Of a DNA stretch of 64,000 nucleotides, positions 3,573 to 52,500 are shown one piece after another. Made by a program: the position numbers and the translations under genes. Positions within the stretch are counted from its first letter, which is position 1; every line of letters starts with the position of its first letter. The stretch is taken from contig CAZTNI010000003.1 of the NCBI GenBank assembly GCA_964615415.1, forward strand, positions 15,235 through 79,234, given 5' to 3'. Under the pieces are notes generated by a model, which saw only the letters and a list, made by a program, of their open reading frames with translations, searched no databases and had not been told where the DNA came from. Source of the DNA: an uncultured Candidatus Saccharibacteria bacterium. Its GTDB lineage: Bacteria; Patescibacteriota; Minisyncoccia; Phycocordibacterales; SBAW01.

Positions 3573-4198
3573 AAGAACATACAGTACAGGTAGGGAAGGA
3601 ACATTACGGTTTCCGTCGATACTGCTATCCAGATCGATGGGCAAGTTATTATCACCAACTCGAAGAAATTGTTGCTACAAAACCGACGAGCGTACTCGAA
3701 ATAGGCGCTGGAGACGAGACAGTAAAGCGTTATATGCAAAAACTTGGGGTGGGGAAGTATGTCACGATGGACATTGCCGATGACTTGGCACCGGATATAA
3801 AAGGATCTATTACTGCTATCCCGCTAGAAGATAAATCCTTCGACACGGTGTGTGCATTTGAAGTGCTAGAGCATATTCCGTTTGAGGAAGTATCGCAAGC
3901 GCTTTCTGAGCTTGCGCGTGTTGCAAAAAAGTATGTGCTGGTCAGTGTGCCGCACTTCGGTCCCCCGGTACGCGTGCAGATTAAGATTCCTTTTTTGCCT
4001 CAACTGACACTGTTCAAAAAAATCCCATTCCCTAAGACGCATGTATTCAACGGGCAGCATTATTGGGAACTAGGAAAAAAAGGATATCCCGTGCGTCGAC
4101 TGCGTGAACTTATGCGCGACACATTTTCAATTGAGAAAGAGTTTGTGCCTGACGATAACGCCTACCACCACTTCTTTGTACTGCGTCCACTCGTATGA
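3569..4198 (+). CDS. Class I SAM-dependent methyltransferase
   Basis: 209 aa. SAM motif I VLEIGAGDETV and motif II/III region DTVCAFEVLEHIPFEE. Confidence 0.65.
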   Translation: MKEHTVQVGKEHYGFRRYCYPDRWASYYHQLEEIVATKPTSVLEIGAGDETVKRYMQKLGVGKYVTMDIADDLAPDIKGSITAIPLEDKSFDTVCAFEVLEHIPFEEVSQALSELARVAKKYVLVSVPHFGPPVRVQIKIPFLPQLTLFKKIPFPKTHVFNGQHYWELGKKGYPVRRLRELMRDTFSIEKEFVPDDNAYHHFFVLRPLV

Positions 4199-10485: not shown

Positions 10486-12659
10486 GTTCCAAGTGAGTAC
10501 CCATACAATCTATACGTTCCTGGAGTAAGAAGAACAAGTGAGAAGTCTGTTATGTAAGGAGACAATATGTAGGAATATAGTTGAGATAGATCGACCGTAA
10601 TCACGTATCGTCCTGCCTGGCTCACTGTCTGAGGACTGAATTGGTCTATGCGGACAAGTCCTTGGGGTTGAGGCGAGGCGAATGAGTCCTCGTACGAAAT
10701 ACCTATAAATGTTTTTTCTGTCCCTGAGGGAATTTCTATATCAAGAGTTATATACAGAGGAGGTGTGTGAGCAGAAGAAAAAGCAAGAGGGATGCGAGTG
10801 GTTCCATCGCTTGTGTATGTCAAAGGTTCAGTATCAAACTTCTCTGTGGTACTGAAATCAGACACTACAACTACTGATTTTAAATATATATTATGTAGGG
10901 CGGAATTTTGTGAGAGAGCTTGTATAAAAGAAGGGTGGATATTCTTGGAGTCTATAAATGAAGAAATAGGTATGAATTGTATATGTGGTTCGAGCTTTAA
11001 AAACGGACGGTATATAGATGCAGGTGTGCCTGGAAGAGATGGGTTAATATAATTGCCCTGCAAGTCTGGAACACGAATTATTTCGTTTGAGGTGCTCGCT
11101 AGTGCTGCTAGTGCAGGCGCGAGTGTGTGCTGCAGAAGCTCGACACCTTTTTTGCTTTCGAGTACATCCGCAACATTTTGCGTGTTATAGAACGTATAGA
11201 GATGCTGTGCACCGAACACACATACTATGCCCGCACAGAGTGCTAGTGTTCGTGCCCGGCGCGTCTCAGGAGATGTGTTTGTAACGCTGGTCCATATCGC
11301 AATTGCGACAATACACATAAACCAATAAAACGGCATGATGATTTGTTGTGTGGGGAAATATGCTGCGGGGCGTATGTTTGGTCTTTGAATAGCGGTAAGC
11401 AGTGCTGTACCAAGAAGTAATGCTAAGCAAAATACTATAAAGAACCGAGTTTGGCGGTCGCCTCTGCGGAGAACGTACCACACAACAAACACAAACATCA
11501 AAAACGATATGCCCATTAGTGCGTGCCAAAGGGGAAGGAAGTGTAGGAAGCGTGGTTGATCTATAAGAAAACCAACTCCCGGAACAATAAGCTGTGCCAC
11601 GATTCCGGCGGTGAGCAGATCGTATAAATTTTTTAAAATGCTCAGTATGTTGAAGTTATTTGCTCCTGAAGAAAGAGGTGTGTAACCGGTTTGGAGGTAC
11701 GTGTACCAACCGTATATGACCATGAGTGCTAGTGTGGCAAAAACACTTGCGCCTATGGCTAGGTGGGATCGGAGATATGCAAGAAAGGTTTTTCCCTGAA
11801 ATCCAATACTGTGCAGCAGTGTAAAAAGCACATACGCTCCGGGGATCCAAATGCCTGCAATGTCTACAAACGTGGCCCCCGTAAGACATATCCAAGAGAG
11901 TCCTAAGAAAAGGACACGGTGTGACCGTAAGGTGGCAGTACTCCACGCAAGATATAAAAGAAGTGATGCAAGGAAAAGCGCCAGAATGCGCAAATACATG
12001 GAAAGCATGTAGAATCCTGCCAAAAAGTCGCTCAGCAGTACTGAAGTACCAAGTACGAGAATAAAAACAGCGCTAGTGAGGAATCCAAACTTCAGTTTAC
12101 GCAACAGAAGATGAAAGAAAAAAAGCGTGCTGGCGGCGAGTACTAGCTGAAACATGTTGTAGGGAACAGGGTTAGTTCCAAAAAGATTGTAAAACACAGC
12201 AACCTCTACCCGATACAAAGGAGCTGCGTGTCCGTTTTGGGGGAGAGCAATGAGGTAGGGAAGAGCATGTTCGGTGTTAGCTGCTACGACATGGAAGTCG
12301 TCAGAATGAAAGTACCCATAGAGCACTCCGCTCAAATTGCATATGCTTACAATAAGAAGGCAGATACAAAATATAATTACTTGCTGTACGTAGGAAGGAA
12401 GCCTGTTGTACACTGACCTACTTTTTCTGATGGTAGATAAGAGCGTTTCTCTAAAAGGAGGGAAGTGGGCGTAGAGTAAAAAAGTAAACGCAGCAATGCA
12501 AAAAAACAGCCCTGTTTCATACGAGGTTTTTGAGAAGCCTTCTACATACAAGGCGGCAAGAGGGCTCTCTCCGCTCAAAGAGTAGGAAGATATAAAGGAC
12601 GCAACCAAAAAGCATATACCTGCACTTGCTGCGAAAAAAAGTCCCAGGACGGTAGCCAT
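10482..12659 (-). CDS. Large polytopic membrane protein (~13 TM) with a ~240-aa C-terminal extracytoplasmic domain; possibly a GT-C-type transferase or polymerase
   Basis: 725-aa ORF on the minus strand, ATG at 12657-12659. Extensive hydrophobic N-terminal 480 aa and a Ser/Thr/Pro-rich soluble C-terminus. Confidence 0.5.
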   Translation of the reverse strand: MATVLGLFFAASAGICFLVASFISSYSLSGESPLAALYVEGFSKTSYETGLFFCIAAFTFLLYAHFPPFRETLLSTIRKSRSVYNRLPSYVQQVIIFCICLLIVSICNLSGVLYGYFHSDDFHVVAANTEHALPYLIALPQNGHAAPLYRVEVAVFYNLFGTNPVPYNMFQLVLAASTLFFFHLLLRKLKFGFLTSAVFILVLGTSVLLSDFLAGFYMLSMYLRILALFLASLLLYLAWSTATLRSHRVLFLGLSWICLTGATFVDIAGIWIPGAYVLFTLLHSIGFQGKTFLAYLRSHLAIGASVFATLALMVIYGWYTYLQTGYTPLSSGANNFNILSILKNLYDLLTAGIVAQLIVPGVGFLIDQPRFLHFLPLWHALMGISFLMFVFVVWYVLRRGDRQTRFFIVFCLALLLGTALLTAIQRPNIRPAAYFPTQQIIMPFYWFMCIVAIAIWTSVTNTSPETRRARTLALCAGIVCVFGAQHLYTFYNTQNVADVLESKKGVELLQHTLAPALAALASTSNEIIRVPDLQGNYINPSLPGTPASIYRPFLKLEPHIQFIPISSFIDSKNIHPSFIQALSQNSALHNIYLKSVVVVSDFSTTEKFDTEPLTYTSDGTTRIPLAFSSAHTPPLYITLDIEIPSGTEKTFIGISYEDSFASPQPQGLVRIDQFSPQTVSQAGRYVITVDLSQLYSYILSPYITDFSLVLLTPGTYRLYGYSLGT

Positions 12660-32121: not shown

Positions 32122-34401
32122 TTGTGCTATAGTAGTGCCCATATGCAGTATGCAAGTTACCTTCGTTGGGCGATTATTGGCGGGTTGTGTCTCGTTCCGT
32201 TCCTTGCGTTTTTGGTTGCCGATGGTGGCGTATTGCCGAGCATGTTCTTCCCGTACATTACGGGCAAAAACTTTGCATTCCGCTTTCTTATAGAAATTTT
32301 GCTCGGGCTCTATATCATCCTTGCAATACGAGAACCAAAATATCGTCCGCGATCGTCATGGATTTTGTATGCAGTGGGCGGCTTTGTTGCCTGGATGGGT
32401 ATTGCAACGCTTACCAGCGTTGACCCAGTAAAGAGTTTCTGGAGCAATTTTGAGCGCATGGAAGGGTACATAACACTCCTGCACTACCTCATGCTCTTTG
32501 TGGTTGCTGGAGCAGTACTTACTGCAGAAAAATGGTGGGACCGCTTTTTCCAGGTCTCTATTTCTTCCGGTGTACTCATGGCGCTCTACAGTATTGCACA
32601 GGCGCTCCAATGGTTCGGCCTCTCTCCTTCGTCACAGTCGGGTACGCGTGCGGATGCAACGTTCGGTAATGCTACCTACTTGGCAGTCTTTATGCTCCTC
32701 AATGCCTTCTTGGCGTTGTTTATGGCGGCACGAGTGCTGAGTGGCGGTAAGGACGAAGTTCGTCGCTCCCGAGAAGTCCTCATCTTCTATGGCGTAGCAT
32801 TTGTACTCCAGGTTGCGGCGCTCTTCTTTACTGAAACTCGCGGTGCCGCGCTCGGTCTCGTAGGTGGTCTTATAGTTGCAGCGGGTTATATAGCACTGCG
32901 TGGACAAGGTGGGCAGTGGGCGCTGTTGCGTAAAATCTCCATCGGCACGTTGGTGGGTATTGTTGCGCTTGCAGGGATCTTCTTTGCGCTTCGCGACACT
33001 TCGCTTATTCGCAATACACCAATGCTTGGCCGTCTTGCGTCTATCTCTCTTAACGACCCAACGACGATGTCGCGCTTCTCGCACATATGGCCTATGGCAA
33101 TCAATGGCGCGATGGAACGTCCTATTACCGGTTGGGGTCAGGAAAACTTTAACTTTATCTTCAACAAGTACTACTCGCCGGAGATGTACGCGCAGGAACA
33201 GTGGTTTGACCGCGCACACAATCAGTTCCTCGACTGGCTCGTTGCAGGCGGTATTCCTGCATTCCTGCTCTACACCTCGTTGTATCTGCTTGCAGCGCTC
33301 GCGATTATTCGTTCCCGCACGCTCTCGGTAGCAGAATCAGGCGTACTCCTCGGTTTGTTGGCGGGGTATGCGTTTAACAACCTCTTCGTGTTCGACAATG
33401 TCATGAGCGGCGTCTACTTCTTCCTCCTCTTGGCGTACGCACATGGGCTTTCTCGGAAAGAACTTCCAGGTTCCGTATTCCTGACACGTCCAGGGAGTGA
33501 CCAGATGGTTGCGATTGTGGCGCCTATTGTTCTTGTATTCGTTATCGGCAGCGCGTACACGCTTAACGTGCCTGGTGTCGCGCGTGCAATAACGATGATT
33601 GATGGTCTGCAATCAGTGAATCAAGATACGGGTCAACAGAAAGATCCGAAGGAAAATCTTGAAGCATTCAAGCGTGCGCTTACGTACGGCAACTTGGGTC
33701 GCCAAGAAAATGTTGAACAGCTGTACCAGTTTGCTTCAAATGCGATAGCTCCTTCCACTGCAATTTCTCCAGAATTAAAACAAGATGTGTATGCTACTGC
33801 GCGTACAGCAGGAGATGCTCTTATGGCGCAACGTAAGGATGATGCGCGTCTTGAACTCTTCTCTGCGGTGTTCTTGGCACAGTTTGGTCAGTATGATGGC
33901 GCGGTAGCGGCACTGACGAAGGCAGCTGAACACTCGCCGAATAAACAACAAATCCTCTTCCAGCTTGGTGCGACGTATCTGCAAAAAGGAGATACGGCAA
34001 ATGCGCTTGTACAGTTTAAGAAAGCGTACGACCTAGAGCCGAACTACAACGACGCGCGTATCTTCTATGCGATGGGCTACTACTACGCAGGACAGACCGC
34101 GCAGGGCGACGCATTGTTAAACGAAAAATTCGGCACAACCTTAGTAGATGATGCGCGCTTGCTTCAGACATATCAGAACTTGAAGATGTTTGACCGTGCG
34201 GTCGGCATTTGGAATAAGCGCATCGAACAGAATCCGAACGACGCGCAGCTCCATCTTGGACTTGCAACGGTCTACTTCCAGGCAAATAACATGACTGCGA
34301 CCGTTGCAACGCTTCGCAAGGTGGCTCAGCTTGACCCGTCGCTTGCCGCACAAATGCAGCAGCTCATAACGCAAATTGAAAACGGCACATTAAAGCCGTA
34401 G
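32122..34401 (+). CDS. O-antigen ligase (Wzy_C) family polytopic membrane protein with C-terminal TPR repeats
   Basis: Wzy_C motif FTETRGAALGL...AHNQFLDWLVAGGIPAF. The C-terminal ~270 aa hold TPR-like helical repeats (YDGAVAALTKAAEHSPN..., GDTANALVQFKKAYDLEPNYNDA...). Confidence 0.65.
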   Translation: MCYSSAHMQYASYLRWAIIGGLCLVPFLAFLVADGGVLPSMFFPYITGKNFAFRFLIEILLGLYIILAIREPKYRPRSSWILYAVGGFVAWMGIATLTSVDPVKSFWSNFERMEGYITLLHYLMLFVVAGAVLTAEKWWDRFFQVSISSGVLMALYSIAQALQWFGLSPSSQSGTRADATFGNATYLAVFMLLNAFLALFMAARVLSGGKDEVRRSREVLIFYGVAFVLQVAALFFTETRGAALGLVGGLIVAAGYIALRGQGGQWALLRKISIGTLVGIVALAGIFFALRDTSLIRNTPMLGRLASISLNDPTTMSRFSHIWPMAINGAMERPITGWGQENFNFIFNKYYSPEMYAQEQWFDRAHNQFLDWLVAGGIPAFLLYTSLYLLAALAIIRSRTLSVAESGVLLGLLAGYAFNNLFVFDNVMSGVYFFLLLAYAHGLSRKELPGSVFLTRPGSDQMVAIVAPIVLVFVIGSAYTLNVPGVARAITMIDGLQSVNQDTGQQKDPKENLEAFKRALTYGNLGRQENVEQLYQFASNAIAPSTAISPELKQDVYATARTAGDALMAQRKDDARLELFSAVFLAQFGQYDGAVAALTKAAEHSPNKQQILFQLGATYLQKGDTANALVQFKKAYDLEPNYNDARIFYAMGYYYAGQTAQGDALLNEKFGTTLVDDARLLQTYQNLKMFDRAVGIWNKRIEQNPNDAQLHLGLATVYFQANNMTATVATLRKVAQLDPSLAAQMQQLITQIENGTLKP

Positions 34402-34517
34402 CGGAAGGAGAAACAAAATACTGCTAGCCAAATGGTCTGGCCCGAGAGGCTTTAGAAGCCGATACGGGAGAACCGAGGACCTTTGGGGAGCAGTTTTTGT
34501 TTCTCTTGCACTTCTGC

Positions 34518-34545
34518 TTGACGCTCAAAAGGAGGGGACTATAAT
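34518..34545 (+). promoter_or_regulatory. Near-consensus sigma70-type promoter (TTGACG, 16-nt spacer, TATAAT)
   Basis: -35 TTGACG at 34518-34523 and -10 TATAAT at 34540-34545. Predicted TSS near 34552. Confidence 0.4.
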
Positions 34546-34551
34546 TACAGA

Positions 34552-34620
34552 TGTGAGTGCTAGTAGATGCTAGCCTAACAAAACACAGTCCACGAAAACA
34601 CCCGCCTCGGCGGGTATTTT
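34552..34620 (+). ncRNA. Candidate ~70-nt small RNA (unknown family)
   Basis: Bounded by the promoter at 34518-34545 and the intrinsic terminator at 34600-34620. An internal hairpin gctag-tagat-gctagc. No ORF. Confidence 0.3.
34600..34620 (+). terminator. Intrinsic terminator hairpin (cccgcc-tc-ggcggg followed by tattttcg)
   Basis: 6-bp GC stem followed by a T-rich tract. Confidence 0.45.
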
Positions 34621-34650
34621 CGTACCCGGAAGGGGAGTATACTAGTTCGT

Positions 34651-34746
34651 ATGAAGACCCTTATCATTTTGATAGCACTTGCAGCGTTTGCTGCATTGCT
34701 CTGGATCATCTTCAATCCGACTCTTAACGAGTTCGGATTGCTCTAA
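34651..34746 (+). CDS. 31-aa hydrophobic micro-protein (single TM)
   Basis: ATG 34651, TAA 34744-34746. Peptide MKTLIILIALAAFAALLWIIFNPTLNEFGLL. GGGGAG lies 13 nt upstream. Its own terminator follows. Confidence 0.35.
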   Translation: MKTLIILIALAAFAALLWIIFNPTLNEFGLL

Positions 34747-34756
34747 AAAGTGTCGC

Positions 34757-34785
34757 GCCGCCCCACCCTAGGGGCGGCTTTTGAT
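34757..34785 (+). terminator. Intrinsic terminator
   Basis: gccgcccc-acccta-ggggcggc followed by TTTT. Confidence 0.5.
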
Positions 34786-34889
34786 GTTGCTGTGTAAGGC
34801 TAGAAATACTATTGACTTTTACACTAAAATATGATACAATTGTAAATGGAGGCTGCCTGCATGTCGTGGGCACAAAATCGGAGGTTTGC

Positions 34890-35237
34890 ATGCTTTCTAG
34901 AACTCAGAAGATTTTTCTCCTCACTGTGGGCGGACTGATCATTGCGTGGGCGATTGGCATGTTCGTCTTCAACCTCAACTCGTTGTGGTGGGCGGTCGTT
35001 CCGATGATCATGGTCATCGGCGCGTTCGTCCTCTTCCTGCTGCCGGCAGCAGGCGAAGCTGTGCGTTCGGTCGCCGGTGTGAACCGTGACCTCAAGGAGC
35101 AGTGGCCAGGAATGTCGATCGGGCACAAGCTCGCTATCGTCGGCATCGTCGTCGCTGCTTTCGTGTTCCTCTACGTTCTCGTTGTCGTCGACCCGCTTCA
35201 GCTCAATGTGCTTGAGCTGATCGGTCTCGGTAACTGA
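34890..35237 (+). CDS. Small membrane protein (3 TM), hypothetical
   Basis: ATG 34890 with GGAGG 8 nt upstream; 115 aa, strongly hydrophobic. Confidence 0.55.
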   Translation: MLSRTQKIFLLTVGGLIIAWAIGMFVFNLNSLWWAVVPMIMVIGAFVLFLLPAAGEAVRSVAGVNRDLKEQWPGMSIGHKLAIVGIVVAAFVFLYVLVVVDPLQLNVLELIGLGN

Positions 35238-35253
35238 ACCCTTCAGGGGTCCC

Positions 35254-35290
35254 GAGCCGCTCCCTCTTGGAGCGGCTCTTTCTTTTGTTA
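35254..35290 (+). terminator. Intrinsic terminator
   Basis: 10-bp stem gagccgctcc/ggagcggctc with loop ctctt, followed by tttcttttgtt. Confidence 0.6.
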
Positions 35291-35392
35291 TACTGCACGT
35301 AGTGCGCCTCGAGCGGGGAGCGCTGCACTCACATTTGGACAATGTTTTGGAGCTCGCATCCGCTTCCCGCTCGGGTCACACTTTTTTCTGCT

Positions 35393-36403
35393 ATGGAGTT
35401 ACGAGAGAACGCGCCCCTTGCGCCACTTACGACATTTAAGATTGGCGGTCAGGCGCGTTTTTTGTTGCGTATCTATGACGCGCGCGAAATACCGAAAGCA
35501 CTGACGTTCGCTCGCTCGCAAAAACTTCCCGTCATGATACTCGGTGGTGGTTCTAATATGCTCATAGACGACGCTGGCTTTGAAGGAGTGGTGCTTAAAA
35601 TCGAAATTCGAGGAGCAGAACTCACCGATGCGCTTCTTGTTGCGGGTGCAGGAGAGGAATGGGACCCGCTTGTTGCGCAAGTGGTGGAGGCAGGGTATTG
35701 GGGTATAGAAAATCTCGCGGGTATCCCAGGCACTATTGGTGGCGCTGCAGTGCAAAATATCGGCGCGTACGGTACAGCGCTTTCAGAAGTGGTGGAATGG
35801 GTGGAGGTGTTTGATATGCGTACCGATATGGTGAAGCGTTTTACAAATGTCGACTGTGCGTTCGGCTATCGCACCAGTGCGATGAAGCGCGGGTTAGATC
35901 GTTTTATTGTGTTGCGTGTAGCACTACGCCTTACAAAAGAAGCCGCGCCAAATCTTTCTTATAAAGATTTAACAGAAACATTTGCAGCGAACCCTACACC
36001 GTCCCTTCAAGAAATTCGTAGGGCAGTGCTCGCAATTCGTGCTAAAAAATTTCCTAATCTTTCTCAAGAGGGGACCGCGGGTTCATTTTTTATGAATCCT
36101 GTCGTCTCGACTGAAGACGCCGCAACACTCCAAGCAAAATATCCTACGATGCCGGTCTTTCCGCTTCCGGAAGCAGGAGGGAGAGTAAAAATTCCTCTTG
36201 CGTGGCTGCTTGATAACGTACTGCATGCGCGTGGCATGCGCCACGGCAACGCACGATTATTTGAAGCGCAGCCTCTTGTGATTGCTGTTACGTGGCCCGC
36301 ATCATCGAGCGATGTTGTTGCACTTGCGAAAGAAGTACAAGAAAAAATTTTTTCTACATGCGGAATTACGATCGAACCAGAAGTTTGTATTATCCACAGA
36401 TAG
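35393..36403 (+). CDS. murB: UDP-N-acetylenolpyruvoylglucosamine reductase
   Basis: LTTFKIGGQARFLLRIYDAREIPKALTFARSQKLPVMILGGGSNML is the MurB FAD-binding N-terminus. ATG 35393 chosen within the longer ORF. Confidence 0.85.
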   Translation: MELRENAPLAPLTTFKIGGQARFLLRIYDAREIPKALTFARSQKLPVMILGGGSNMLIDDAGFEGVVLKIEIRGAELTDALLVAGAGEEWDPLVAQVVEAGYWGIENLAGIPGTIGGAAVQNIGAYGTALSEVVEWVEVFDMRTDMVKRFTNVDCAFGYRTSAMKRGLDRFIVLRVALRLTKEAAPNLSYKDLTETFAANPTPSLQEIRRAVLAIRAKKFPNLSQEGTAGSFFMNPVVSTEDAATLQAKYPTMPVFPLPEAGGRVKIPLAWLLDNVLHARGMRHGNARLFEAQPLVIAVTWPASSSDVVALAKEVQEKIFSTCGITIEPEVCIIHR

Positions 36404-45998: not shown

Positions 45999-46070
45999 AA
46001 GAGGGAAGTCTGAAAATTGCCAAAAGTCGTCAAGCTTTTATACATTCGGGATCATATTAAAAATATGTCA

Positions 46071-46100
46071 AAACCGCTCTGAAGACGAGCGGTTTTTACG
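46071..46100 (+). terminator. Intrinsic terminator
   Basis: aaaccgctc-tgaagac-gagcggttt followed by tttacgtttctt. Confidence 0.55.
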
Positions 46101-46524
46101 TTTCTTCGAAAATATAGTAGGGAGTTACTAATACAGGCTGCGAAAATTCAGGAAAATTTCTTCCGAGATTTACTATCTGCTGGACGAGATATCGATACGG
46201 CAAGACGATATACCTTTTATTTTCAACATTTATCGTTTTGAAAATATTTTACTGTATATCCGATAAAGCCTTGTTCTTGCGTTGATACAGATTTTTATAT
46301 TTTTTGAATAAATTTTCCCTTCAATAAGTGAAATAGAAATTTTTAGCAGTAGAAAAATAAACCTCAGTGAGGCCGTAGAAACGTTTTTAAGAAAGGGGCT
46401 AGTAGCCTCATTCTATCCACATATTTCCTTCAAAAAATACTCATAAATTTGAAAGTTGGCTCTACAATATTTTGTAGGGGAATAACCCGAACTCATTGTA
46501 AAACCAAAAGTTTTTTCGGATCGT

Positions 46525-49500
46525 ATGACGTCACCTAGTAAAATAATTTCAGACTCTGGGAAGCCTATGCTTCCAGCGCGCAAGGTGGCGCAGCGTCTTT
46601 CGTGCGCACAAGACTACGTTGGCAAGCTTTGTCGCGAAGGAAAACTGAAGGGCACACAGGTTCGAAATGCTTGGTTTGTTGAAGAAGATTCTATTGCTGC
46701 TTTTGAGGCTGCTCGCGAGGCTGCCCGTGAAGCCCGCTCAAAGGATCTCGCCGAATTGCGTCGTAAAGAAAGTGCGCAGTACCGCAAGACACACCCAACT
46801 CTGGATGGAATTGCGTCTTCGTGGGTAGGTCGGGGCGCTGTAGCGGCATTAGGAGCAGTATTGCTGCTGTGCTCTGTTGCGTTTGCTGGCGAGATGAACG
46901 GAACGCTTAATCTTTTTGCAGGCAAGCAGGAACAATCAGCGGCTATTGCTCAAGTTGAGTCACCATTTTTCGGCTCACATGCGTTTTCTGTTACTGTGCC
47001 GACACTTCCTACTTCAAATCTTGCAAAAGATTTTATTTCAGGAGCACTTTCATTTTTCTTTGGTAAAAAAGATACGTCACTTGCAGAGAAAACACCTACA
47101 GAGGCTCCGGTGGTGACTGATGAACAAAATGGTCTGGCCTCGCCAAGCGAGGAGAACCGAGGACCTTTTGTGCAGCAGACACCATCGGAGACTCCTGCTC
47201 GACCTGTTGTGCAGAATACGTACCCGGTTATTGAGCGCACCGTCGAGCGCGTTACTACCGTATCTGGGGTATCCGAGGAATATCTTGCGCAGCGTTTGAG
47301 TGAACTTACAAATTCTCTTAAGTCAGAAATCTTTTCTGCAATAAATTCTGTTAGCACGTCATATTCGTCAGGTGGTCCTACCAACAATATCGCACTCACG
47401 CAGCGCATCGATCGCCTTGATGGAGTGACACTTTCGAACGTGTCGGTAAACGGCATTTCTGGCTTAACTGCAAGCGATATTCCTGTACTTGCATATCTGC
47501 CGACCGCTGGTGGAATTGTGACTGGCTCGACTACTGTCGCGGCTGACTTTACTGTTTCGGGAGCACTCAGTGTTACCGGCGCAACCTCAACTTTTGCAGG
47601 TATTACTATCGCAAGTCTCGACTGTACTGCGTATGGTAACGACGGAAAGCTCACCACCGATGCGTCAGGTAACATAGTCTGCGCAGACGACTATGGAGCT
47701 GCAGGAGGCGCAGGGTCTCCAGGGGGCGCAAACACATATGTGCAGTTTAACGACAGCGGTAACTTTGGTGGCGATGCAGGTTTTGTATATAACAAGACAC
47801 TCGACCGTCTTACTGTTGTAAACGCTTCAACGACGAACTTTACTTCAGACAATGCAACGTCAACGAATCTCTTTGCAACACTTGCACGCCTCACTACTGC
47901 GACAATTTCCTCGCTTACAGTAGGTTCTCTGAACGGTCCGCTCCAGGCAAACAACGGAGTCGTCTCTGCAACGACATCGGTTGGTGTGCTCTATGGCGGA
48001 ACAGGTCTAACCACTGCACCAAGTTATGGCCAACTCCTCTTGGGTAATGCGTCAGGCGGATACGACCTTGTTGCAACATCGTCACTGGGTATTACCAGTG
48101 CGCAGTGGGGAAATATTACCGGCACTTTGTCTGACCAGACGGACCTCCAAAATGCGTTGAATGCAAAATTCTCACTTTCTGCATGGTACGCAACGACGAC
48201 TGATGGACTTGCACAAGGTGTAACGAATAAGTATTACAACGATAGTTTGGTTCTGACATACCTCGACACACTTTCAAAGGGATATTTCTTCTCAACTTCG
48301 TCGGCACAGTATTTTGTACACGCCTCTACGACAATCCCAAAGACATATACGGCGAATACATTCACTGGTTCACAAACATTTACAGGCGGCGTTACAGTAG
48401 GTTCTCTGAACGGTCCGCTCCAGGCAAACAACGGCGTCGTCTCTGCAACGACATCGGTTGGTGTGCTCTATGGCGGTACTGGGCTCACGACTGCACCAAC
48501 GTATGGTCAAGTGCTTCTTGGAAATGCCTCGGGTGGCTACGACTTGGTTGCCACGTCGTCGCTTGGTATTACGGGCGGTGGCGACCTTTCAAACTACCTC
48601 TCGCTCGCTGCGTGGTATGCAACGACGACCGACGGTCTTGCGCAGGGTTCAACAAATCGCTACTACTCAGACACACTCGTGGGCACATATATTTCAGGCT
48701 CGTCAACAGTTCCACATATTGGTGGTTCAGCATACGGTGACCTGTTGTACTGGACTGGTACGGCATGGTCAACGATCGCTACGTCATCGCTTGGAATTAC
48801 GAGCGGTTCGCTTGCGTTTAGCTATCCATTCCCAAATGCAGCAACATCAACACTTATTGCGTTTGATGGCGGACTCACTGCGTACGCATCGTCAACGATC
48901 GGCACTGGTACACAGGCGGGCGGCCTCACTATTCGCGGTGGCGCAACAACGACTGGCAATGCATATATTGCAGGTTCGTTGAATGCAGGCGCTACCACAC
49001 TTACGTCGCTTACTCTTACAAACGTCTTAACGCCAGCAAATGGCGGCACTGGTACCTCAACACCAGGTGTGTGGGGCGATGTGCTTACCTGGAACGGCAC
49101 TAACTGGCAGGGAACTGCAACGTCGTCACTTGGGTTGCCGACACTTTCTACGCTGTCATCATACGCACTTGCCTCACAAACCTTTGGCAAGGCGTGGGAG
49201 ATCACCAACGGCTATCTTGCACCAACATCAACGCTCGGCATTATTGTCGCAGCATCTTCAACAATTGGTAACGGTACTGCAGCAGGAGGACTCACTGTTA
49301 ACGGTACCGCAACAACAACATTGCTTGCTATTACAGGTCCTGGCACTTCGACGATCGCAAGTAACATCCGCATGAGTGGAGATATTATTCCTTCGGTAGA
49401 CAATACGTATTCATTGGGTAGCGAACTGTACTCATGGAAAGAAGTATTTATCGGTCCAGGCTCGCTCTACGTTAATGGTCAGCAAGTTATCTCAACGAAC

Positions 49501-52500
49501 GGATCGAACGACGTTGTCGTTAGTACCGATCCAGGAGAAAACCTGGTGCTTCAAACCAGCGGCTCTTCAAACATCGAATTTAATCCAACGGGCGGCCAGA
49601 TTTTGTTTAAAAATACGGTTAACGTAACAGCGGGTAAGAGTATTACCACTACTGACCTGTCTGCACTTTCGATACCAAACGGTGTTGCGGCAGGAAATAT
49701 CACTGTTTCGGGTAATGCAATTACTGCAACAAACCTTAACGGTGGCATTTCTATTACTCCAACGGGCACCGGCGGTACGTATGTCACTGCGGGCAACTTT
49801 GGTATTGCAACAACATCGCCACTCGCAAAGCTCGATGTGTATGGCAACATGATCCTTTCTGGTACGGGTCGTTACATTAACTTCGACTACACCACAGGCT
49901 CGTCTGGCTACGGATTCCGCGACAATAGCGGCGTTCTTGAATTTAAAAACGCAAACGGTGCATGGGCGCCGTTTGCGTCATCAACTGGATACTTGGCACT
50001 CTCAAGTTGGTATGCAACCACGACAGATGGTCTTGATGAGGGGTCAACAAACCAGTACTACACCAATGAGCGTGTCGATGATCGTGTAGGGACTCTTTTG
50101 CAAGCAGGTTCAGGCGTCACGCTTAACTACAACGACGGTTCTGACACGCTTACCATCAGCGCAACGGGCGGCGGTGGCGGCGGAACCGACGTAAACTGGA
50201 CCTATTTCAACGGCTCAGGGTTATACCCATCGACCTCTACAAACCAGGTGTTAGTGGGCGGCACGTCGACGTCGTCGCTTCAGTCGCCACTCGCAAAACT
50301 CGGCGTCATTGGTGGTGCGTCTATCGACTACGCATCAACAACGGGTATCACCTCAAGTTATGCATCTTCAACAGCGGCATACTTTGGCAGTTTGTCAGTA
50401 GGAAATTTGACCGGCATTTTGCAGGCAATTAATGGCACAGTGTCTGCATCGTCATCAGTGTCGGTAGCGTTTGGCGGTACAGGACTTACCACAGCACCAA
50501 CGTACGGCCAACTTCTTATGGGTACTGCAGCGGGGGGATACTCGCTTGTTGCAACATCGTCACTTGGCATAACCGGCACTACGTACACATTTAATTATCC
50601 GCTTACAGAGTCTGCTGGGGTTGTGTCGCTTGCGTTTGGTACCACAACAGCAAACACCTGGAGCGCACACAACAGTTACTCAAGTCTTTTTGCAACAAAT
50701 GCATCAACAACAAATGCAACAACAACCAATTTTGCGGTAACCGGGCTTACAAACACACTGGTTAAGACAAATGCTTTGGGGCAGCTTGTTGCTGCAATTG
50801 CCGGTACGGACTACCAAACCTTTGCATACCCATTCCCATCAAACGCAACCACCACCTCTATCGCATTTAACGGCGGCCTTACCACAACCGGCGCAACGAT
50901 CGGTACATTGAACGGCCCATTGCAGGCAAACAACGGTGTCGTATCAGCAACCACATCTGTTGGCGTCCTCTATGGCGGTACAGGTCTTACTTCAATTGCA
51001 TCATCATCTATCTTGATCGGTAATGCGCAAGGCGGGTTTACTGCAGTTGCTACTTCGACACTTGGTTTTGCATCTGCTTCGTCTCTCTCAAACTACCTTT
51101 CGATCTCGGCATGGTATGCAACCACAACCGACGGGCTTGCGCAGGGCGTAACCAACCGCTACTACAGTGACACCCTTGTTGCTGCATACATTTCAGCATC
51201 ATCAACCATTCCGCATATTGGCGGCTCGGCATATGGCGATATGTTGTACTGGACGGGTACGGCATGGTCGACCCTTGCGACGTCGACACTCGGTCTTCCA
51301 ACATTTGCATCACTTGCAAGCTACCTCGCACTTGATGCGTGGTATGCAACAACAACTGATGGCTTGGATGAAGGTTCAAACAACCAGTACTTTACGCAGC
51401 AGCGTGCAACCGACAACTTCATTGCAAACCTTGCAGCAACAACGTCAGTTGCATCAATCACGACACTTCAAAATCTTTCAATTACTTCGTCACAAGTCTC
51501 TAACTTCAACACAAGTCTTAACTCATACATTCACTCTTCTACAACTATTCCAAAAACCTACACTGCAAATACGTTCACTGGGGCGCAGACATTTAGTGGT
51601 GGTCTCAGTATCTCAACCCTTAACGGTCCACTCCAGGCAAACAATGGGGTAGTATCAGCAACTACATCGGTCGGTGTGCTCTACGGAGGCACTGGCCTTA
51701 CCTCTACTCCAACCTACGGTCAGCTCCTTGTTGGCAACGGCACGGGCTACACCCTTACATCTACTTCATCACTTGGTCTTCTTTCATCAACATCGATCCA
51801 AGCTGTAGCACCGCTGTCATGGAACGCAAACACCGGCGCACTTTCTATCGCACAGGCAACAGCGTCAACTGATGGGTACCTTGCCTCAGCAGACTTCACC
51901 ACCTTCAACAATAAAGTTTCCTCATCGTCACTCATTGCCTTCAACAACACCTTCCGTGAATGGAGTCTTGTAAACGGTGTTCTCGTTCCGACCTCAACTG
52001 TAGGTGTCATTGTATCCGCATCGTCCACTATTAGTGGGGGTCTCACCGTTGTAGGCAACGCAACCTCAACTTCAGCGGCAATCACTTCAATTACCTCAAG
52101 CCTCCTCAAGACCAACTCTTTGGGGCAGCTTGTTGCTGCAGTAGCCGGAACCGACTACCTTACCTCTGCAAGTCTCGAGCCGAGCTTCACTTTTGCAACA
52201 AACTTCGGAGTACTTACTGCGGCTACATCATCAACCATCTGGGCACAGTCTGGTTTGTTTGCGTCTTCTACGTCACGTTTTGCAAACATCATTGCTGCTA
52301 ATGCAACCACCACCTCTCTATATATTGCATCGCTCACGGGCCCGCTCCAGGCAGTTAATGGCCAAGTGTCGGCAACCTCAACACTTTCAGTCGCATACGG
52401 CGGTACCGGCGCAACTACGTTGAATGACCTTATTACGCTCGGCACGCACACGACTGGCAACTTCCTTGCAACACTTGCAAATGGTGGAGGTCTTACAGTA

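Follow-up and report, generated by a model that had tools for sequence, protein, structure and literature searches.

Here we describe two conserved candidate RNA genes, RNA1 and RNA2, that lie in tandem in a 64-kb stretch of contig CAZTNI010000003.1 (64,000 nucleotides (nt), hereafter the window). The neighbouring genes, all on the + strand, are those for a GDP-mannose dehydratase and for a Wzy_C (O-antigen-ligase-like) protein with TPR repeats (759 amino acids (aa), gene end at 34401), followed by murB and secA. The pair is thus located between envelope genes, with the O-antigen-ligase-like/TPR gene upstream and murB, then secA, downstream. It comprises the following features:

34518–34545, + strand: RNA1 promoter, with a -35 box TTGACG (34518–34523), a 16-nt spacer and a -10 box TATAAT (34540–34545), matching the sigma-70 consensus at 11 of 12 positions.
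34553–34623, + strand: RNA1, about 68–72 nt, with the predicted 5' end at G34553 and the 3' end in or after the U-tract 34617–34620.
34553–34560, + strand: RNA1 segment A, the 5'-terminal GUGAGUGC, almost invariant in 41 loci.
34559–34574, + strand: RNA1 hairpin 1, GCUAGU-agau-GCUAGC (GCTAGTagatGCTAGC).
34579–34592, + strand: RNA1 segment B, the single-stranded seed CAAAACAcaGUCCA, whose CAAAACAnnGUCCN is predicted to pair with the apical loop of RNA2.
34592–34623, + strand: intrinsic terminator of RNA1, ACGAAAAc-ACCCGC-cucg-GCGGGU-a-UUUUCGU.
35289–35294, + strand: RNA2 -10 box TATACT; in related loci TATACT or TATAAT lies 6–9 nt 5' of the RNA2 GUGCGC (judged by eye).
35302–35381, + strand: RNA2, about 80 nt, with a 19-bp closing stem (35302–35322 with 35361–35379) and a loop of about 38 nt.
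35325–35332, + strand: RNA2 segment A', GCACUCAC, the exact complement of the RNA1 5' GUGAGUGC.
35335–35349, + strand: RNA2 segment B', UUGGACAAUGUUUUG, the part of the apical loop that the RNA1 seed would bind.

The initial annotation of this DNA had pointed to TTGACG-16 nt-TATAAT at 34518–34545 as one of the best sigma70-like matches in the window, followed by an internal hairpin and by a GC-rich hairpin with a T-tract. All of these signals are present where described. The promoter is the sole match of at least 11/12 on both strands of the window, although Markov-1 random sequences of equal length yield 1.0 ± 0.9 such matches, and therefore the promoter by itself is not above chance. Promoter-like sites in the surrounding 5.5 kb occur near the shuffled rate. 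The internal hairpin is found at 34559–34574, and the terminator has a GC core, ACCCGC-ctcg-GCGGGT, at 34600–34615, followed by ATTTTCG, with A/U pairs that lengthen the stem to 34592–34623; it looks bidirectional. The same 5.5 kb contains 8 terminator-like sites where 6.6 ± 3.0 are expected, so the terminator alone is not significant. For 34552–34622 the predicted folding energy is -28.6 kcal/mol, which corresponds to z = -5.3 relative to 200 dinucleotide shuffles; both the minimum free energy and the centroid structures of RNA1 consist of two independent hairpins, and RNAalifold likewise returns the hairpin and the terminator only. The annotation had also described the interval as free of open reading frames (ORFs). 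A mechanical 56-aa GTG ORF does run from 34557 to 34727, but it crosses the terminator and its frame is broken by indels in relatives. Taken one by one, the promoter, hairpin and terminator do not rise above chance, and it is the comparison with relatives that decides. A likeness of RNA1 ACAGUCCUG to the sTRSV hairpin-ribozyme substrate was considered and rejected: the GUC is paired, the bases of the internal loop vary, and Rfam gives no match.

For this comparison we used 41 distinct RNA1/RNA2 pairs, all from Paceibacterota loci; 29 loci were added by exact match to a 20-nt RNA2 core in metagenome contigs. In blastn, window positions 34539–34628 align at 72–88% identity in nine loci, each time between the Wzy_C/TPR gene and murB, although MurB identity there is just 43–56%. 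Protein identity is low in the RNA1 loci generally (43–62% for the flanking proteins, or about 50–60% for those of the 41 loci; about 43–66% for MurB relative to the window). The closest MurB relatives in GTDB genomes reach 54–56% identity and come from Candidatus Paceibacterota, Adlerbacteria and the Parcubacteria group; the window therefore represents a bacterium of the candidate phyla radiation (CPR) without a close relative among the GTDB species representatives searched. The RNA1 covariance model R1 recovers the window copy at 34553–34627 (82.3 bits, E about 1e-15), which is the single copy in the window. As determined by nhmmer and the covariance model, RNA1 occurs once per locus in the non-truncated Paceibacterota loci except L015 and L014, the latter having neither RNA1 nor RNA2, and it was not found by either method in about 27 non-CPR murB loci. 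Conservation of the region and covariation in related genomes had been named as checks by the initial annotation, and both bore it out: RNA1 is found in 41 Paceibacterota loci, and both of its stems covary.

Specifically, the 17 modelled pairs of RNA1 are paired in 95.8% of alignment cells, compared with 35–52% when the partners are slid, and 12 of them show double changes, a value reached by none of 500 shuffles. Hairpin 1 contributes compensatory changes at four of five modelled pairs (94.5% of cells paired) and the terminator at eight of twelve (96.4%). The CGAAA/UUUCG flanks of the terminator are invariant, and nearly all loci carry a UUUU(U)CGU tail. G-U pairs are frequent (three of the pairs, for example, are G-U in 14, 19 and 9 sequences) and would become A-C mismatches if the opposite strand were read, which identifies the + strand as the one transcribed. 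The substitutions obey base-pairing rules and not codon rules; RNA1 has no conserved reading frame, because indels in hairpin 1 and in the terminator loop shift the frame among relatives. Upstream, a TAnnnT hexamer ends 6–8 nt 5' of the conserved GUGAG in 39 of 41 loci (TATACT in 23), and many RNA1 loci carry a TTGACN or TTGCAN -35 box or a TGn extended -10. In locus L102, RNA1 and its promoter are inverted together relative to their neighbours, as is expected of an autonomous gene.

The comparison thus shows RNA1 to be a conserved, structured, non-coding gene with promoter and terminator signals, and we infer that it is transcribed as an RNA of about 70 nt. The proposal of the initial annotation, an independently transcribed small RNA (sRNA) of about 70 nt, gains comparative support from the -10 box at a fixed distance, the covarying stems, the inversion in L102 and the co-evolving partner described below.

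We searched for known families at this locus. Rfam 15 at the gathering threshold gives no match in the 64-kb window and none in 129 kb of related loci (18 loci), and permissive E-value thresholds add nothing in the window, in both RNA regions or in the same 18 loci. The top sub-threshold Rfam matches over RNA1, rsmX (19.9/19.3 bits; threshold 56) and isrK (16.5; threshold 50), cover essentially the terminator only. RNA2 has no Rfam match and nothing relevant below threshold. ARAGORN reports no tRNA and no tmRNA. A full-text literature search found no description of RNA1 or RNA2, nor of a comparable conserved sRNA in CPR bacteria. The pair is therefore in neither Rfam nor the searched literature, and RNA1 belongs to no described family.

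RNA2, which the initial annotation had not noticed and which holds the key to the function of RNA1, is better conserved than RNA1 and appears in blastn as a block directly upstream of murB. It is found in 47 loci (nhmmer E = 6e-23). Its closing stem is paired in 93.1% of cells and shows double changes at 9 of 19 pairs (0/500 shuffles), while the loop of about 38 nt, ..UGCACUCACAUUnGGACAAUGUUUUGGAGCUCGCAUC, is nearly invariant. In the window, RNA2 is followed by T6 at 35382–35387 and by the murB ATG at 35393. The longest murB ORF would start at ATG 35342 (MFWSSHPLP...) and read through RNA2, but relatives align from 35393 and the Logan gene calls also place the MurB start there (336 aa), so ATG 35393 is most likely the start. 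In about 27 loci murB begins 0–20 nt past the RNA2 closing stem, which leaves no room for another promoter; RNA2 would therefore be the 5' leader of the murB transcript, and probably of secA too, in most genomes. A leader peptide in RNA2 was rejected: no codon position of MFWSSHPLP varies, the frame runs on into unrelated tails, and the AUG is missing in L075, so the conservation of this frame acts at the RNA level. A CsrA-type binding site was likewise rejected, as the GGA of the RNA2 apical loop is not conserved. The stem of the RNA1 terminator resembles the GGGGAGCG/CGCUUCCC stem of RNA2, and inspection by eye found no consistent pattern of correlated change between them.

The comparison shows that the RNA1 seed co-evolves with the RNA2 loop. 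In the window, RNAduplex pairs the seed with RNA2 at -15.1 kcal/mol, forming 7 bp, a 2x2 loop and 5 bp. The same architecture (7 bp, a 2x2 internal loop, 5–6 bp; -11 to -18 kcal/mol) is found in 41/41 pairs. Cognate pairs average -14.41 kcal/mol compared with -11.78 ± 0.28 for permuted ones, and none of 20000 permutations is as good. In the anchored gap-free alignment A4, 94.8% of the intermolecular cells are paired against 34–44% when slid, and there are 20 double-change cells against 5.7 ± 1.9 in shuffles (0/500). The covariation lies in pairs 20-35, 21-34 and 22-33, with double changes in 6, 9 and 4 distinct sequences. These three adjacent pairs switch between CG/UA, CG/UA/AU and UA/AU, with G-U intermediates. 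Five complementary states are observed: GUCCU/AGGAC, GUCUU/AAGAC, GUUCU/AGAAC, GUUCA/UGAAC and GUCCA/UGGAC. The window has the last of these, UGGAC opposite RNA1 GUCCA, while most relatives have AGGAC opposite GUCCU. These five states require at least four independent compensatory events.

The gap between RNA1 and RNA2 is 9–150 nt in most loci and contains insertions of 660–740 nt in the window, L078, L086 and L088. Because the complementarity survives the L102 inversion and the long insertions and tolerates G-U, it represents RNA–RNA pairing in trans rather than a DNA inverted repeat. We infer from the comparison that RNA1 binds RNA2 in the cell. The seed helix (helix B) is favourable net of opening costs (mean -3.1 kcal/mol; -4.5 in the window). 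A second helix (helix A), between GUGAGUGC and GCACUCAC, is paired in 97.3% of cells in A4; both of its sides are invariant and offer too little variation for covariation, and the helix is predicted from complementarity. A third contact is possible between the RNA1 hairpin loop GAUGC and RNA2 GCAUC: the 3' side of that loop, (G/A)UG(C/U), is weakly complementary to GCAUC, and the contact scores -5.4 kcal/mol against -3.6 for shuffled loops, a weak difference among sequences that are not independent. RNAcofold of RNA1 with RNA2 returned the monomer folds; pairing of a loop with a single strand is a pseudoknot in the concatenate, and this calculation is hence uninformative.

Several loci carry variants of the interacting segments. 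In L005 (3827–3899), L008 (3712–3786) and L011 (3828–3896), the RNA1 seed reads ACAUUGU(C) and pairs fully with RNA2 GACAAUGU, with no internal loop. The RNA1 terminator loop of the same loci bears (G)ACAAUG, a copy of the RNA2 target core, and could mask the seed intramolecularly by a pseudoknot. In L015 (3919–4061), RNA2 is altered at otherwise invariant sites, with GCGCUCAC for GCACUCAC and GGAGUUUGCAGUC for GGAGCUCGCAUC; this single case could reflect relaxed constraint without a partner.

On these comparative data, we consider it fairly probable that RNA1 is a new, independently transcribed, base-pairing sRNA that acts on the neighbouring RNA2/murB leader. Transcription of RNA1 would start about 7 nt past the conserved -10 box. 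The RNA would fold into a 5' hairpin and a terminator hairpin, which would leave two conserved segments, the 5' GUGAGUGC and the central CAAAACAnnGUYNN, fully or almost fully exposed. The central seed would then pair with the apical loop of RNA2, whose gene lies just downstream on the same strand, and a further helix may form between the RNA1 5' end and GCACUCAC, located in the 5' part of the RNA2 loop, as their complementarity suggests. If both helices formed, the complex would be a four-way junction of the RNA2 closing stem, helix A, the RNA1 hairpin and helix B, with the two intermolecular helices side by side. As to the consequence, the likeliest, which we suggest only tentatively, is that RNA1 might tune the RNA2-murB(-secA) leader post-transcriptionally, through stability, processing or translation.

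A number of observations weigh against this interpretation. At the level of RNA1 itself, the U-tract is short (4–5 U) and interrupted (UUUUCGU). At the level of pairing, helix A alone is energetically neutral (mean net +0.8 kcal/mol with opening costs), and both strands of helix A, and of most of helix B, hardly vary, which leaves only 3–4 positions that can covary. The RNA2 site (-15.1 kcal/mol) ranks just fifth by hybridisation energy on the + strand of the window and comes first within ±5 kb in no more than 16 of 41 loci, and hybridisation energy alone would not have found RNA2 as the target. At the level of murB, the RNA1 site is the RNA2 loop and not the closing stem that overlaps the murB ribosome-binding region. 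Moreover, murB is absent after RNA2 in six loci, where RNA2 has its own terminator before secA, and in five other loci a terminator and a different leader element stand between RNA2 and murB. RNA1 and RNA2 are intact in all of these loci, and their persistence without murB or behind a terminator argues against a purely murB-directed role. Since RNA2 with its own terminator is kept where murB is absent, RNA2 must have a murB-independent role, which RNA1 would likewise modulate or share. L015 has RNA2 without RNA1 within 4 kb and is the only complete locus of this kind. Finally, every sequence compared is a metagenome assembly.

Among the alternatives, one of the two RNAs may be a multi-target sRNA and the other its dedicated sponge or decoy, with the seeds constrained by many mRNA targets. 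The invariant seeds with a covarying periphery are the pattern expected of a multi-partner seed, and RNA2 persists as a stand-alone terminated RNA without murB. On the other hand, we found no conserved complementarity of RNA1, or of its seed, to the translation start regions of murB, secA and the O-antigen-ligase-like (Wzy_C/TPR) gene, and we regard a sponge relationship as unlikely, if credible.

The near-invariance of the RNA2 loop, including the parts that pair with RNA1, suggests constraint beyond pairing, and would also suit a bimolecular RNA of which RNA1 and RNA2 are subunits: an obligate complex, perhaps a ribonucleoprotein, with a housekeeping role. The two RNAs co-occur in 41 of 43 RNA2 loci and are both kept where murB is lost; segments A and B, and possibly the RNA1 loop, cover nearly all of the RNA2 loop, which fits a compact four-way junction. 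However, the net pairing energies are modest, L015 has RNA2 without a nearby RNA1, and no conserved associated protein gene accompanies the pair besides the envelope genes. Nor is there any likeness to a known two-piece RNA (no tmRNA, no Rfam match), and the anatomy of RNA1 is that of an ordinary regulatory sRNA. Such an obligate complex is in our view improbable. Its most specific form, a four-way-junction particle whose loop nucleotides would have a housekeeping, protein-scaffolding or catalytic function and whose adjacency to murB and secA would mean shared transcription only, is a speculative model that we hold to be distinctly doubtful.

It is also conceivable that there is no separate sRNA, and that the region holds only the terminator of the upstream O-antigen-ligase-like gene together with signals in the DNA, for instance an inverted repeat or sites for a regulator of the RNA2/murB promoter. 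In most loci RNA1 begins 30–60 nt past the stop codon of the upstream gene, and its hairpin must therefore also terminate that gene; segments B and B' do form an inverted repeat at the DNA level. Against this, G-U dominates some of the intermolecular pairs (at 23-32, GU in 16 and AU in 10 sequences) and some stem pairs, which is meaningful only in + strand RNA, and the flip in L102 turns the repeat into a direct one while the RNA complementarity is retained. Additionally, the spacing of the segments varies from 9 to 740 nt, the -10 box keeps a fixed distance from the conserved 5' end, and the 5' hairpin covaries though a terminator would not need it. We consider the absence of a separate sRNA very improbable.

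The initial annotation had raised another possibility, that the RNA1 element is a transcription-attenuating leader of a 31-aa micro-protein gene. This gene lies in DNA that separates RNA1 from RNA2 in the window:

34624–35288, + strand: window-specific insertion of about 660 nt between RNA1 and RNA2, not part of the RNA pair.
34651–34746, + strand: 31-aa hydrophobic ORF, with TATACT at 34638–34643 and a terminator at 34757–34778.
34890–35237, + strand: 115-aa membrane ORF, with a promoter at 34812–34840 (TTGACT-17-TACAAT), GGAGG and a terminator at 35254–35278.

The two ORFs have no counterpart in roughly 45 related loci and no Pfam match. The insertion arrangement also occurs in Logan assemblies of apparently the same organism, whereas in L103, the highest-identity relative of the window, the RNA1–RNA2 gap is about 23 nt; different insertions, with other genes in L078, L086 and L088, are found at the same spot in L078, L086, L088 and L075. 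TATACT ends only 7 nt 5' of the ATG of the 31-aa ORF, whose mRNA may be leaderless. Although this ATG (34651) lies 28 nt past the RNA1 terminator in the window and the purine-rich GGAAGGGGAG at 34628–34637 could serve as a ribosome-binding site on a read-through transcript, the leader proposal is already contradicted by synteny and can be practically discounted: RNA1 is conserved in all related loci and the 31-aa ORF in none, RNA1 is followed there by RNA2, mostly at 9–150 nt, the ORF has its own TATACT, and RNA1 offers no antiterminator alternative, its terminator being conserved as a plain hairpin.

The preferred interpretation, an sRNA acting on the RNA2/murB leader, can be set beside known systems. 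The anatomy of RNA1 is that of an ordinary trans-encoded base-pairing sRNA. A parallel in layout is found in E. coli DsrA, RprA and ArcZ with the rpoS leader: like RNA1, these short sRNAs are transcribed from a promoter of their own, combine a 5' hairpin and a Rho-independent terminator with a single-stranded seed, and make limited, interrupted pairing with a long hairpin that belongs to another gene's 5' leader. They pair with one strand of an inhibitory stem, free the ribosome-binding site and depend on Hfq. RNA1, in contrast, targets the apical loop and leaves the closing stem untouched, RNA2 also occurs as a stand-alone terminated RNA, and RNA1 and RNA2 are encoded next to each other; neither sequence nor Rfam relates RNA1 to DsrA, RprA or ArcZ. 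The geometry of recognition recalls the antisense kissing complexes CopA-CopT of plasmid R1 and RNAI-RNAII of ColE1 and the two-site complex OxyS-fhlA, in which contact likewise starts at an exposed loop and two discontinuous intermolecular helices form while the intramolecular stems persist. The CopA-CopT complex has been described as a four-way junction with side-by-side helices, and the same geometry is predicted for RNA1-RNA2. CopA/CopT and RNAI/RNAII are cis-encoded, fully complementary and control plasmid copy number, whereas RNA1 and RNA2 are separate tandem chromosomal genes with about 8 + 13 complementary positions and conservation across a class-level clade.

Sponge pairs such as SroC-GcvB, 3'ETS-leuZ with RyhB/RybB and RosA with RoxS/FsrA share with RNA1-RNA2 the pairing of two non-coding RNAs with conserved seeds. 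The sponges described so far usually arise when an mRNA or a tRNA is processed, as a by-product, and are confined to particular lineages, whereas RNA1 and RNA2 appear to be dedicated genes with their own promoters, syntenic and co-evolving. Like the 3'UTR sRNAs of the MicL/DapZ type, which have an internal promoter, RNA1 lies right after the stop codon of a gene, here Wzy_C/TPR, and shares its terminator with that gene, and in many loci its promoter coincides with or adjoins the end of the coding region; unlike them, it is separated from the gene in the window by a 100-nt hairpin before its promoter, and the inverted sRNA of L102 is not tied to the upstream mRNA. Type I toxin–antitoxin systems (tisB/IstR-1, zor-orz) also place an sRNA beside its target and pair it with the target 5' region over about 20 nt of partial complementarity, but RNA2 carries no conserved toxic peptide, as the tails after MFWSSHPLP are unrelated and L075 has no AUG.

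What is unusual here is that the target can be read from natural compensatory changes, that this target is a highly conserved structured RNA, and that the pair belongs to a lineage, the CPR, for which the literature search found no regulatory sRNA of this kind. Sequence alone seldom reveals what an sRNA targets, and the CPR (Patescibacteria) make up a large share of bacterial diversity. RNA1 would represent a class-wide sRNA family whose partner has been naturally "mutated and compensated", and it offers a concrete hypothesis of RNA-based control of peptidoglycan synthesis in organisms that are not yet genetically tractable. Two, possibly three, RNA families would be added where Rfam matches nothing in about 190 kb around the locus.

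The possible third family, 'RNA3', is a conserved element of about 95 nt with its own TAGAAT/TATAAT box. Some lineages carry it between murB and the terminator of RNA2; the window lacks it. Its layout is GCCGGAGUCAUGU-[hairpin]-ACAGACGAGGCGGG...CGCGACCGAGG-[hairpin]-GCCGAGAGUUGUG, and it was seen in L086 (about 2300–2420, - strand), L090/L097, L091 (about 12150–12250), L105, L082 and L004 (about 3830–4000). Compensatory changes are visible by eye where its hairpins vary. Rfam does not match RNA3, which may serve some lineages as an alternative leader motif of murB.

Other elements were observed around the pair. Between the Wzy_C/TPR stop codon and the RNA1 -35 box lies the 100-nt imperfect hairpin mentioned above (34407–34507; -51.6 kcal/mol, z = -5.6), which is not conserved in relatives. 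Pieces of 18 nt from it recur at 47151–47168 of the window and, inverted, upstream of RNA1 in L105 (10453–10470); the hairpin may represent a terminator specific to this lineage, or else a small repeat or mobile element. Another hairpin repeat of about 45 nt (..CTCCGGAGAGATGAACG/ACGA..) flanks the RNA pair on either side in L085, follows RNA2 in L089, and looks like a small dispersed repeat. The RNA2 core has no match in viral contigs.

A perfect TTATCCACA, the DnaA-box consensus, is located at 36390–36398, at the end of murB and upstream of secA. The same motif stands between the RNA2 terminator and secA in the murB-less loci L102, L104 and L107, with ATATCCACA in L081, and may be a conserved element upstream of secA. 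Proximity to oriC was rejected, as TTATCCACA occurs at chance level in the window and the GC skew shows no switch here; the 36390–36398 site is probably not oriC. Further along the window, at about 46000–50000, the sign of the GC skew changes, with the maximum of the cumulative skew near 47 kb; this may mark an origin or terminus of replication, or a change in the strand bias of the genes.

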